The position numbers and the translations under genes are program-made. Positions 19,155 through 40,548 of a stretch of DNA of 64,000 bases are shown here, one piece after another (within the stretch, counting starts at the first letter, position 1; each line of letters starts with the position of its first letter). This stretch comes from a virus, in IMG/VR virus record IMGVR_UViG_3300012932_000063. One strand, given 5' to 3'. Below the pieces are notes generated by a model. The model was not told where the DNA came from, made no database searches, and saw nothing but the letters and a program-made list of their open reading frames with translations.

Positions 19155-19300
19155 AAAAGTATCAGGGAGTTACATCCCTGTAGCGGGTGCTATGGCACAC
19201 CCCATTGTATATACTATATACAATGTTGCCCCACCTGAGTGGGGAATGCTCTCATGAAGAGCAAAGGAATCTCTATGCTTTAGCATGGAGAGGATGTCAA
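19155..19300 (+). ncRNA. Orphan omegaRNA scaffold 3 with intact IS605 right end
   Basis: Core motif plus GGAATC-TCTATGC TTTA GCATGGA-GAGGATG-TCAA. Confidence 0.8.
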
Positions 19301-19314
19301 AAAGGATTAAAATA

Positions 19315-19752
19315 ATGAAAATTAACGATCCTCTCAAATTAAATGATTTACCTTTACCAGTTATACCTGTATTAGAAGAATTGATTAAAAAACATAATCT
19401 GCTTGTTGATATGGTTAGAAAAATGAACAAAGATTTAGATATTATTGTTGATTCTTTACCTGTTAAAAGAGACGAATATGGTCAGTTAGAATTAATTAAA
19501 TACAAGTGTGTTTATTGTCAAAATTATTTCGCCAATATAACTAAAGATCATATTATACCTAAATCTAAATTTCCCAAAGGCATTCATAATGTAGAAGAAA
19601 ACAACGTGTTATCTTGTGAAGAATGTAATCAGAAGAAATCTGACTTGTTTCCTCATGAAATACAAAACAAAGAAATGAGAGATATTGCACTGTATAACGC
19701 TATAAAAATAGATTGGATATGGTTATATCATGTTGTTTTTAGCAGGATATAA
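19315..19752 (+). CDS. HNH endonuclease
   Basis: CVYC..TKDHIIPKS..NNVLSCEECNQKK. Confidence 0.8.
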   Translation: MKINDPLKLNDLPLPVIPVLEELIKKHNLLVDMVRKMNKDLDIIVDSLPVKRDEYGQLELIKYKCVYCQNYFANITKDHIIPKSKFPKGIHNVEENNVLSCEECNQKKSDLFPHEIQNKEMRDIALYNAIKIDWIWLYHVVFSRI

Positions 19753-37038: not shown

Positions 37039-37101
37039 TATTAAAATCGATATAGAAGAAACCGTATCAAAAGAAGAAGCTATAAAACGGGTAAATGTTA
37101 T
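37001..37101 (+). pseudogene. 5' part of a small ORF interrupted by the TnpB element (3' part at 40069-40090)
   Basis: Joining 37101 to 40069 gives MKEIKFPL..KRVNVIEIGVIE-stop, with ATGA overlap to the next gene. Confidence 0.65.
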
Positions 37102-37223
37102 CAAAGTCTTCCATTTCAAAACTCCATGCTTTAGCTTGGAGATGTAGAAATGGCGCAGGGCGTGTTTCATGGAACTGGACTTGGTATGATAAAAAACATA
37201 GCCAAGCCCAATCTTTTTGCAGG

Positions 37224-37520
37224 TTACACTGCCTTCCATTTTCTGCCTATTCTTACAACTTTTCTTCGTTCAAGTAATCTAAACAGTGATTCTCTGACGG
37301 TAAGGTTGTAAGGTGCTGTTGGGTGCGTATCCAATTTTGTGGGTATAGACAATCTCAATGTAATCTCACCTTGGGTGAGACACTGATTCCATTTTCCTTT
37401 AACTTCTAACAACACTTCCAAAACCGCAGAATCAAGAATTAATAACGCTATTTCCGATTTAATCTGCGGATCCATATTCATAAACAAATCATAATCGGCG
37501 TTATCCAAGGGCTGTTTCAT
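37224..37520 (-). CDS. Winged-helix-like hypothetical protein (cargo)
   Basis: AGGAG RBS; helical body ending in VVRIGRKWK hairpin. Confidence 0.65.
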   Translation of the reverse strand: MKQPLDNADYDLFMNMDPQIKSEIALLILDSAVLEVLLEVKGKWNQCLTQGEITLRLSIPTKLDTHPTAPYNLTVRESLFRLLERRKVVRIGRKWKAV

Positions 37521-37657
37521 TTCAACAGTTCTCCTATAATGCACTTGTATATTAACAATTTTCGCGCGTTAATCATTGACTAAATACGCGAAAAATGCTA
37601 ATATACAAGTTAGGTTAAGTTACATTTAAGTTGCAAGTACAAAACACTTGTAACTTC

Positions 37658-37719
37658 AAGGCAGCTGATTGCCAAGAATTGTTGGTTCTTGGGCGGGGTT
37701 TAATTCCCCGCTTGCCTTT
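37658..37719 (+). ncRNA. D-arm-less tRNA-like RNA
   Basis: AAGGCAG/TTGCCTT stem, CCAAGAA-TTGTTGG-TTCTTGG arm, GCGGGG-TTTAATT-CCCCGC T-arm; promoter TTGACT-17-TAATAT at 37576-37604. Confidence 0.55.
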
Positions 37720-37827
37720 TTCTACAAAAAATTCTACAATATTTGTGGATTTTTCGCAATACTGAAAGTTTAATAAGTGAATATATGGTAGGTAATTGGG
37801 CGATCTGTTTGGATCGTCTATTTTAAT

Positions 37828-37856
37828 TTGACATGCTATTGTAAATCGCGTATAAT
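37828..37856 (+). promoter_or_regulatory. Consensus sigma70 promoter
   Basis: TTGACA-17-TATAAT. Confidence 0.75.
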
Positions 37857-38018
37857 AGTATTTGTGAAAGGGAGGCAAGGATTGCCGTCCATACCTCCCG
37901 ATGCTAATTTTCAGGAATATGGCTGTTTTTGTGGAGTCGCCAGCAAGTCCCCGAAAAAGAAAAGTTAGAATAACCACTTGGGGTGCAATGAAACGGAAAT
38001 AAAAGAGGTGTGTAAAAT

Positions 38019-38120
38019 ATGGAAGGGAATTTTGGGTATGTTTTACTAGTATTTAATGTGATTAACACAATTATACTTCTTTACGTGCTTAAGTTAACAA
38101 AAGACGAAAAAGACGAATAA
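38019..38120 (+). CDS. 33-aa single-TM peptide
   Basis: Hand-translated MEGNFGYVLLVFNVINTIILLYVLKLTKDEKDE; GAGGTG RBS. Confidence 0.6.
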   Translation: MEGNFGYVLLVFNVINTIILLYVLKLTKDEKDE

Positions 38121-38344
38121 AAGTGTTTCTGACCCTAATTCTGAAAAAGTGATATTGAAAACGAAAATCTGAATTACTTAAAGAATGGATTAATACTGGA
38201 GGATGGTAATTTTTTAGAATTTTCATTTTAACTGGATTAACTCTTGAAAATGCGTTAAAATTGAATTAAGTTGTCGTAAATTCAGGTCAGTGTCACGACA
38301 CACTGACCTGAAAAATATCAATACGTTATTTTTAGGAGTTAATT

Positions 38345-38584
38345 ATGTTGAACCAATCACGTACCGATATATCTGTTACTAAAGAATTGCAGAAAATTTC
38401 ATATATTTTCCAGCAATTCCAGCAACAAGAAAAAGCATTTAGAGAAATTGAAAAGATTCTTTCAAGACCTCTCGCTATTTCGCAGATTGAATCCTCTTCC
38501 CGCAAAACAAACGAAAAAATTGTTGAAATGCATAGGAAAAGGATAGAATATTGCTTGAAAATTGGATTCTCACCTTTTCTTTAA
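38345..38584 (+). CDS. Hypothetical protein (cargo)
   Basis: AGGAG RBS. Confidence 0.6.
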   Translation: MLNQSRTDISVTKELQKISYIFQQFQQQEKAFREIEKILSRPLAISQIESSSRKTNEKIVEMHRKRIEYCLKIGFSPFL

Positions 38585-38652
38585 TAACGGCTATATTTTA
38601 CAATAAATCTGGATTGGTGTCAAGTGTAATGCGGTACCAAGCCAGATTTTTG

Positions 38653-38779
38653 TTGACAAAAATATGTAATTGTGATATTATATGTTTTACCAGTTTGGCA
38701 GGCATTGTTAGCTTTGCCGCAAGGCATTGTGCCTGCCTCCCACTAACAAGGGGATAATCAAACTGGCACTGGTAATTCC
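38653..38779 (+). promoter_or_regulatory. Promoter and pseudoknotted 5' leader of tnpB copy 2
   Basis: TTGACA-17-TATTAT, then three-way junction with 7-bp loop-loop complementarity. Confidence 0.55.
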
Positions 38780-40003
38780 ATGAGATTAGTAAGAACCAAA
38801 AGGCTTAAGATACAAAGGCAATCTATCTTTTCTGAGATTAATGCCGCGTCTGCTGATGTATGGCGTGAATGCTGTGATTTGATGGATATGTATCAGTGGC
38901 GGCGTGGTTATGGTCATGCTCACATGGATTTCTATATTGGTGAGGATTGTGAGGGTTGGGTGGATAAGAATTTGTCTAAGTCTCAGCCTTTACATTCTCA
39001 GAGTATACAGGCGGTGCGTGCCTCATATTTTAAATCTTGGGCGTCCTATGCAGTGCTTAAGAAAACAGGTGGCATCAGGAAACCTAAACCGCCTAATAAG
39101 AAAAAGAAATATCGTACCACCCACTGGAAGAAGTCCGCCATCAGATTTTATGAAAGTGGATTATTAGGCAAACGCGTTCTGCTTTCTATGGGTGCCGGCA
39201 GACCAAGATTAGATATAAAGCTGCCAAAAAACTTTGATATGTCCACAAATCATTTGATTGCAACTATTGAGTTGGTCTATGATTATGGGCAATGGGAGTT
39301 ACATTTCACATATTATGAAACTATAGAGAAGCCAGAAGCTGGTAATGGTGTTATAGGTATTGATTTGGGTGAGGTTCATCCGATGGTATGTTTTGATGGT
39401 CAAGTTGCTCTAATTTTTAATGGACGCTATATCCGCTCGCTATATCGCCTTAGAAATAAAGTTCTTGCAGGATTCAATGCTGCCATTAGTAAATGTCAAC
39501 GCCATTCCAAACGCTGGTGGAAGCTAACGCGTCGCAAGTGGAAGCGCATCAGAAGGATAGATAATCAAATCAAGGACGGCTTACACAAACACACGCGAAA
39601 GTTAATGGATGAATGTGAGGTAAGAGGTATTGGGACCGTTGTTGTTGGTAATTTGACGGGCATCCGCGATCATATAGATTACGGCAAAAAGTCAAATCAA
39701 AAACTGCATCAGTGGCCCTTCGCTAAGTTGATAAACATGATAACCTACAAAGCAAAAGCATTAGGTATCAAAGTGAAACATATCAACGAGGCATATACCT
39801 CCCAAACTTGCCCGAAATGCGGCAATAGAAAGAAACCTAATAAACGTGAGTATAAATGTAAGTGTGGTTTCACATATCATCGTGATGGTGTGGGCGCAAT
39901 CAATATAAGACAAAAGTATCTGGGATGCCTCGGTGTCCCCGTAGTGGCGCACATGGCGGCGCCCCAGGGCTTCAGATTAGAAGTCCCGGTTGCCTTGACT
40001 TAA
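38780..40003 (+). CDS. tnpB: TnpB (IS200/IS605-family RNA-guided endonuclease), copy 2
   Basis: GIDLG, VVVGNL, INEAYTSQTCPKCG, HRDGVGAINI. Confidence 0.93.
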   Translation: MRLVRTKRLKIQRQSIFSEINAASADVWRECCDLMDMYQWRRGYGHAHMDFYIGEDCEGWVDKNLSKSQPLHSQSIQAVRASYFKSWASYAVLKKTGGIRKPKPPNKKKKYRTTHWKKSAIRFYESGLLGKRVLLSMGAGRPRLDIKLPKNFDMSTNHLIATIELVYDYGQWELHFTYYETIEKPEAGNGVIGIDLGEVHPMVCFDGQVALIFNGRYIRSLYRLRNKVLAGFNAAISKCQRHSKRWWKLTRRKWKRIRRIDNQIKDGLHKHTRKLMDECEVRGIGTVVVGNLTGIRDHIDYGKKSNQKLHQWPFAKLINMITYKAKALGIKVKHINEAYTSQTCPKCGNRKKPNKREYKCKCGFTYHRDGVGAINIRQKYLGCLGVPVVAHMAAPQGFRLEVPVALT

Positions 40004-40088
40004 CAATCAAGGAATGTTCCTACAAGGAACAAAAGGAATCTCCAGTCTTTAGACTGGAGAGGGTTCAAAGAAATAGGAGTTATTGAAT
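39912..40088 (+). ncRNA. omegaRNA (reRNA) of tnpB copy 2; predicted guide AGAAATAGGAGTTATTGAAT
   Basis: Overlaps tnpB 3' end; GAAT-hairpin-TCAA right end as in IS608/ISDra2. Confidence 0.75.
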
Positions 40089-40548
40089 GACAAAAACAAA
40101 TTTTGATAAAGCCATGGAATTTAAAAATTCTATAGAATCAAAAATTCATGAACATATTGAATTAGAAAGTGTAGATCCAAATGTGCATCCGGATGATTTG
40201 AAATTCAGAATCTATCATCCGTTTCATTTTAACGATGGGGATTGTTTCTCTATAGTTTTAAAACGCATAGGTAAAAAGTGGTGTATTTCTGATGAAGGTA
40301 ATCTATATTTTCACATGGGTATATTTTTTGATGACAGGCTATTAGATCAAGAACCATGTAAATCTTATATAGATAAATGCCGCACACAGTTTAATATAGA
40401 AGATAGAGACACTGAGCTTGTTTTATTTATAGAAGATAATGACTATGATACAGCTATCTATGACTACTTACAGTTTTGTCTGCGGTTTATGCACGTATAT
40501 ATATTAGCTGAACCTGAACTTTATGGACTACAAAAACTCGAGAAATAA
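40087..40548 (+). CDS. DUF1828-like protein
   Basis: HPFHFNDGDCFSIVL..WCISDEG. Confidence 0.7.
   Translation: MTKTNFDKAMEFKNSIESKIHEHIELESVDPNVHPDDLKFRIYHPFHFNDGDCFSIVLKRIGKKWCISDEGNLYFHMGIFFDDRLLDQEPCKSYIDKCRTQFNIEDRDTELVLFIEDNDYDTAIYDYLQFCLRFMHVYILAEPELYGLQKLEK

Follow-up and report, generated by a model that had tools for sequence, protein, structure and literature searches.

Cas12 is descended from TnpB, itself a compact genome-editing nuclease. In the window, the whole 64,000-nucleotide stretch of viral DNA analysed here (IMG/VR record IMGVR_UViG_3300012932_000063), the nuclease gene tnpB2 is preceded by a folded RNA of ~90 nt at the 5′ end of its predicted message, and the question raised by this locus is what such a structure does in front of a phage-borne nuclease gene. 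The window is phage-like, with a weak match to a portal protein family, an NAD-dependent ligase, an NrS-1-type polymerase domain and seven tRNA genes, and it also holds tnpB1 (10302-11483), to which tnpB2 is 58% identical.

A folded leader inside a tnpA-less tnpB element

Comparisons of multiple copies within single genomes gave the order of these elements as target site, left-end (LE) hairpin, promoter, leader, tnpB, guide-RNA region, right-end hairpin and a GTTCAA or GTCAA end, and the right-end architecture of the tnpB2 locus recurred in these comparisons. Since the element boundaries come from such multi-copy comparisons, the leader lies inside a tnpA-less IS200/IS605-type tnpB element and is not one of the TnpA hairpins (Table 1). 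The flank 37098-37150 was closely similar to the left end of L003, and related loci had a comparable promoter at equal distance. Judged from the promoter position, transcription would start at ~38688-38689. We also considered the leader as the left-end hairpin itself and ruled this out, the true LE and right-end (RE) hairpins being located elsewhere.

Table 1 Features of the tnpB2 element and its leader (window positions).
Feature	Position	Strand	Description
LE subterminal hairpin	37122-37141	+	IS200/IS605-type TnpA recognition hairpin; exact match to CTCCANNCTTTAGNNTGGAG
tnpB2 promoter	38653-38681	+	sigma-70-type; TTGACA, 17 bp spacer, TATTAT, upstream TG; 11/12 consensus matches, extended -10
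Shared 5′ strand of both closing helices	38687-38697	+	P1 takes 38690-38697, P1′ takes 38687-38694; covariation with both partners in 35 sequences
P1	38690-38697 and 38759-38766	+	CCAGTTTG with CAAACTGG; read directly
P1′ (alternative closing helix)	38687-38694 and 38768-38775	+	TTACCAGT with ACTGGTAA; read directly
Proximal 3′ strand of P1	38759-38766	+	used in centroid structure
Distal duplicate 3′ strand (P1′)	38768-38775	+	-12 to -5 relative to ATG; used in minimum-free-energy (MFE) structure
P2 (8 bp)	38697-38704 and 38730-38737	+	GGCAGGCA with TGCCTGCC; read directly; 100% paired in 35-leader alignment
P2a	38712-38729	+	inside P2; TGCC 38715-38718 with GGCA 38723-38726, GCAA loop 38719-38722
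P3	38738-38741 and 38751-38754	+	TCCC with GGGA; read directly
Pseudoknot (7 bp)	38743-38749 and 38705-38711	+	P3 loop CTAACAA with TTGTTAG in the 5′ strand inside P2; read directly
tnpB2	38780-40003	+	407 aa; Pfam OrfB_IS605 and Cas12f1-like TNB domains
Right-end hairpin and right end	40040-40068	+	hairpin 40040-40059, right end ~40068 (...GGTTCAA); 3′ part of omegaRNA scaffold

The interval between the LE hairpin and the tnpB2 promoter measured ~1.5 kb in the window (37142-38652) and just ~60-130 bp in relatives, so that the window copy carries cargo; its small open reading frames (37224-37544 and 37615-37977 on the minus strand, 38345-38584 on the plus strand) had no Pfam match. Within 38595-38653, the minus strand carries a strong promoter-like site in divergent orientation (TTGACA/17/TAAAAT, 38623 to 38595), placed inside an inverted repeat, AAATCTGG...CCAGATTT (38605-38649), that adjoins the -35 of the tnpB2 promoter and whose loop motif, GTCAAGTGTAAT, was also present upstream of the promoter in L041. 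Elsewhere in the window, a stand-alone right-end-like sequence at 19200-19307 (CTCTATGCTTTAGCATGGAG then AGGATGTCAA) was preceded by hairpins resembling the 3′ guide-RNA scaffold and overlapped the start of an HNH endonuclease gene (19285-19752).

All the pairings of the original prediction (P1, its alternative partner by the ATG, P2, P3 and the pseudoknot) were found in the window copy where it had placed them. Two details changed: P2 extends to 8 bp, and the GCAA tetraloop proposed as its cap closes the inner helix P2a, which contains two U-U mismatches. G38697 is compatible with P1 or P2. The claim that no Shine-Dalgarno (SD) sequence precedes the ATG at 38780 also held, and by a loose motif test an SD was found at 21 of the 36 large open reading frames of the window. 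Folded as a single sequence, the leader had an MFE of -36.6 kcal/mol (z = -1.97), with 8 of 200 shuffles equally good, and the MFE structure used the ATG-proximal partner (P1′) while the centroid structure used the other (P1). The window fold alone is modestly better than shuffles; the pairings are established by covariation among relatives.

TnpB RNAs normally lie at the 3′ end, as had been stated, and this holds here: the omegaRNA/right-end hairpin is in its usual place 3′ of tnpB2, and the leader therefore comes on top of the guide RNA instead of being a guide that has moved. The leader is found 5′ of the open reading frame, whereas an omegaRNA would be expected 3′, overlapping the right end and followed by a guide drawn from the flanking DNA. 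In eight elements, the final 260 nt and the flank were searched for complements to the P1 strands, and none was consistent. The Rfam search suggested as a check (Rfam 15) returned tRNAs only in the window at the gathering threshold, nothing overlapping 38682-38782 when 38500-40200 was searched at E ≤ 10, and no match at E ≤ 0.1 in nine related loci spanning the leader subgroups, consistently with an unrecognised RNA.

Relatives, spread and covariation

Close homologues of TnpB2 numbered in the hundreds and came nearly all from Candidatus Poribacteria, which are sponge symbionts. In the tnpA-less copies, the ~90 nt 5′ of the start codon had the same architecture with changed sequence; copies with tnpA directly upstream were without leader, and the leader occupies the place of tnpA, between promoter and tnpB. 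Seven leaders served to build a covariance model (R1), which had exactly one match in the window, at 38688-38785 (95.8 bits), with none at tnpB1, and a search near tnpA gave no match. The tnpB1 locus (10240-11560) has a promoter and a GGTGG/GGATGG-type SD with no structured leader, and no right-end hairpin was found 3′ of the tnpB1 stop codon.

A model of the main subgroup matched all five genomes tested, with 1 to 63 matches each (14, 40 and 63 in the three richest), and at least 62 of the 121 Poribacteria genomes sampled, where the scoring of up to 34 candidates per genome gave at least ~970 matches, with dozens of copies per genome. Among viruses, a 15-mer core pattern hit 80 stretches of IMG/VR, of which the model recognised a true leader in L141 only, the rest being chance hits; a protein search of IMG/VR gave one partial relative, and megablast of the region against phage records gave no match. 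In L141 (1795-1919, minus strand), the sole further IMG/VR viral contig found with the leader, there is a long P2a insertion and an apparent TTG start codon, and the TnpB N-terminus resembles that of the L084 protein.

The same leader type (84-96 bits) stood 5′ of TnpBs that share just 24-32% identity with TnpB2 and among themselves, and frameshifted or truncated tnpB copies were still preceded by an intact leader. As a separate observation, three loci of genome G005 (L083, L088 and L091), a 4-Mb genome with 63 model matches, have intact leaders before a third TnpB clade (MRNTKHKLF...) whose reading frame is broken after 127-140 codons. In L086 (787-1602, minus strand), a divergent leader with a weak score of 33.6 bits was seen before a 239-aa open reading frame that had no Pfam match and is no recognisable TnpB.

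To the covariance model we aligned 35 distinct leaders from many genomes. Over the entire structure, 98.8% of cells were paired, compared with 32-45% in a control with partners shifted by 1-3 columns, these cell counts not being independent events, as the element copies are kin to each other. Both sides had changed at 21 pairs, a value reached in none of 500 shuffles. The pseudoknot was paired in 99.6% of cells with changes on both sides at five of its seven pairs, and each of its four central positions showed all four Watson-Crick pair types; P2a was 97.1% paired and covaried at six of seven pairs. Both closing helices covaried as well. The distal helix, P1′, was paired in 98.8% of cells with five of seven pairs covarying (GC 10, UA 9, AU 8 and CG 8 at one column pair), in an alignment whose model contained P1′ and whose counts therefore lean toward it. 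The proximal helix, P1, which was absent from the search model, was paired in 88.2% with five of eight pairs covarying (AU 8, GC 8, UA 8 and CG 7 at one column pair).

In a second subgroup, aligned with MAFFT without regard to structure, the pseudoknot was 100% paired, again with covariation at five of seven pairs, and the proximal and distal helices were paired in 98.4% and 95.3% of cells. P1 and P1′ varied little in the SD-bearing subgroup, with both-side changes at just 2-3 pairs. Five subgroups have the common design, and direct parsing gave at least 13 different pseudoknot sequence pairs among them. Moreover, G-U cells were frequent (for instance, 24 of 35 at one P1 pair), which indicates that the folded strand is the sense strand.

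The G-U pairs bear on a reading that we consider very improbable, in which the leader is a single-stranded DNA transposition signal, its folded top strand being used by TnpA in the manner of the IS200/IS605 end hairpins. These elements do transpose as single-stranded DNA, and the active strand is the top strand in IS608 and ISDra2, here the folded (sense) strand. However, G-U pairs are weak in DNA, and the TnpA-type hairpins at the LE and the RE resemble each other and not the leader, which is placed between promoter and start codon; autonomous tnpA-tnpB elements, moreover, carry an end hairpin of the same type yet have no leader. Equally improbable is a small self-cleaving ribozyme that would remove 5′ read-through sequence from the tnpB message. 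Ribozymes are known at the 5′ ends of mobile-element transcripts in retrotransposons, and a compact junction with a pseudoknot is a typical trait of small ribozymes, but the core nucleotides of the leader are not conserved across subgroups, no Rfam ribozyme model matched even at permissive thresholds, and a promoter belonging to the element lies directly 5′ of the leader.

The duplicated P1 strand and proposed control of tnpB

Every subgroup has two copies of the complement of the 5′ strand. A second complement of at least 6 bp was present in 23 of 23 leaders examined, with a mean run of 8.1 bp compared with 4.95 ± 1.15 in shuffles; the evidence for the duplicate rests on these shuffles and on the column counts, a cross-sequence P1′ control being contaminated by shared P1 classes. 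In the main subgroup, which includes the window, the copies are in tandem and the second ends 4-7 nt 5′ of an AUG without SD, so that masking by P1′ would be partial there. In the SD-bearing subgroups the SD lies between the two copies and the second copy spans ~-5 to +5, start codon included, while where an SD is absent it lies at -15 to -4. A conserved pairing that takes up the SD, the start codon or the landing region of the ribosome marks the masking leaders of IS genes, and P1′, paired in 95.3-98.8% of cells, is of this kind.

The two closing helices are also close in energy. In the window, the P1 state had -36.5 kcal/mol and the P1′ state -35.9 or -33.8 kcal/mol, depending on the assumed start (a gap of ~0.6-2.7), with the pseudoknot and tertiary contacts uncounted. 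In most relatives the two states were a few kcal/mol apart, with the pseudoknot likewise uncounted and the values for L002, L071, L072 and L075 disregarded because wrong P1/P1′ helices had been used; parsing of the helices by program assigned none for L002, L012, L032, L036 and L038 and mis-parsed L005 and L062. The leader has the mutually exclusive helices linked to gene expression that characterise riboswitches: P1 and P1′ share their 5′ strand, both covary and their energies are close.

With moderate confidence, we read the leader as a cis-acting, bistable 5′-UTR translational gate of tnpB in tnpA-less (IS1341-type) IS200/IS605 elements. In such a gate, transcription from the promoter of the element would start at the strand able to pair with either copy of its complement. 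In the P1 state, the compact three-way junction (P1, P2/P2a and P3) would be closed and locked by the 7-bp pairing between the P2 internal loop and the P3 loop, leaving the final ~20 nt 5′ of the AUG single-stranded and translation on. In the P1′ state, the core would stay folded while the ribosome landing region (-12 to -5) would be occupied, turning translation off, and in SD-bearing relatives the AUG itself would be covered. We infer this assignment of on and off, and likewise any trigger. Since the states are near in energy, a modest input could set their ratio, candidate inputs being the ribosome, ions, temperature or a host factor; and since the 5′ end would be base-paired in both states, the message should also be protected. 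One leader type precedes highly divergent TnpBs without tracking their clades and without a complement in the guide region, which makes the ribosome or a host factor a likelier partner than a specific TnpB or omegaRNA.

The original prediction had offered a riboswitch, a ribozyme or a translational control element. An unrecognised but conserved pseudoknotted RNA with a covarying partner in the start region fits the last of these, whereas the first two find neither a conserved core nor a model match. Among further candidates, a conserved upstream open reading frame in the proximal copy was rejected on inspection of the sequences, its frames and lengths being inconsistent. Protection against read-through only, in the style of IS10, was rejected as well, as the predicted native start already takes in nearly the whole shared strand.

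Control by a sensor RNA, of riboswitch or operator type, in which a small molecule, an ion or a protein (host factor or TnpB) chooses between P1 and P1′, is in our judgement rather unlikely. The leader does have the architecture of an aptamer with an expression platform and two exclusive helices; its fold is more elaborate than masking alone requires, and it may have a role in sensing or binding that escaped notice. In the main subgroup the A before and the G after the pseudoknot strand and the UAAA of the P3-to-P1 junction are invariant unpaired nucleotides. From one subgroup to another, however, neither the junctions nor the loops keep their length or sequence, the P3-to-P1 junction being UAAA, U/G, UCUU or UAUA and the P2a loop variable, so that no common pocket is visible. 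A search for ligand-pocket nucleotides conserved across divergent members found none among the five subgroups, the invariant unpaired bases being those of the main subgroup only. The sensor reading also finds no Rfam riboswitch match, and the use of one leader for TnpBs 24-32% identical argues against specific recognition of TnpB or omegaRNA, as does the lack of complementarity between the leader and the omegaRNA region.

Were the knotted junction a true sensor of a host metabolite, an ion, a physiological state or a host protein that flips P1 and P1′, which we hold to be unlikely, nuclease synthesis would be licensed under defined conditions only. This would be the first riboswitch-type control of a nuclease of the TnpB/Cas12 lineage, present in about a thousand copies across the genomes of sponge symbionts and carried into their phage.

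We give a low probability, too, to a stability or processing element, in which the 5′-terminal helix and the knot would shield the tnpB-omegaRNA precursor from 5′-end-dependent decay, or the leader would be released by cleavage to act separately as an abundant small RNA. Consistently with this, the predicted transcript start lies at most 1-2 bases from the paired 5′ strand in all copies, the leader stays intact before broken tnpB genes, and promoter-driven copies are present by the dozen per genome. The RNAs derived from the IS200 5′ UTR, which is treated in PMC5435999, offer a precedent. Such a function leaves unexplained why all subgroups have the second complement placed on or next to the start codon, and neither a terminator nor a conserved cleavage motif is found 3′ of the structure. 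It is, moreover, compatible with the translational gate and need not replace it.

Meaning and comparison with known systems

A literature search found no paper on a structured tnpB leader, on 5′-leader control of TnpB synthesis or on TnpB in Poribacteria. With its very strong covariation, the leader represents a previously undescribed RNA family and, coming from an uncultured phylum, a well-supported candidate for the RNA family catalogue. It is a small, portable module whose two-state design, aimed at the start codon, is common to TnpB clades 24-32% identical. It is present only where tnpA, and hence translational coupling, has been lost. This suggests that elements with tnpB alone have been under selection to limit or time the production of the nuclease.

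The nearest RNAs by location are the omegaRNA (reRNA) and the Rfam motifs IS605-orfB-I (RF03065), HEARO (RF02033) and RAGATH-18, which, like the leader, are structured pseudoknot RNAs on the same kind of element and the same transcript. The omegaRNA differs in lying at the 3′ end, overlapping the right end and carrying a guide, whereas the leader has no guide and does not match the IS605-orfB-I, HEARO or RAGATH-18 models. In purine and THF-I riboswitches, likewise, P1 closes a junction of two touching arms, and alternative pairing of a P1 strand sets access to the start. The tnpB leader differs from them in having no ligand pocket across subgroups and no Rfam match, and its arms touch through a freely varying 7-bp Watson-Crick helix.

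By function, the closest parallels would be transposase leaders. A stem-loop in the 5′ UTR of IS200 tnpA hides the Shine-Dalgarno sequence, and IS10 uses fold-back inhibition. Both, like the tnpB leader, are cis structures that pair the translation start and limit a potentially harmful element protein, an effect that in our model would apply to TnpB, and IS200 belongs to the same IS200/IS605 superfamily as the leader-bearing element. No sequence or model similarity to either was found. The IS200 and IS10 leaders, moreover, are simple hairpins before a transposase gene, whereas the tnpB leader precedes the gene of an RNA-guided nuclease, only in elements without tnpA, and has a three-way junction in which a loop pairs with an internal loop as a pseudoknot and two closing helices compete.
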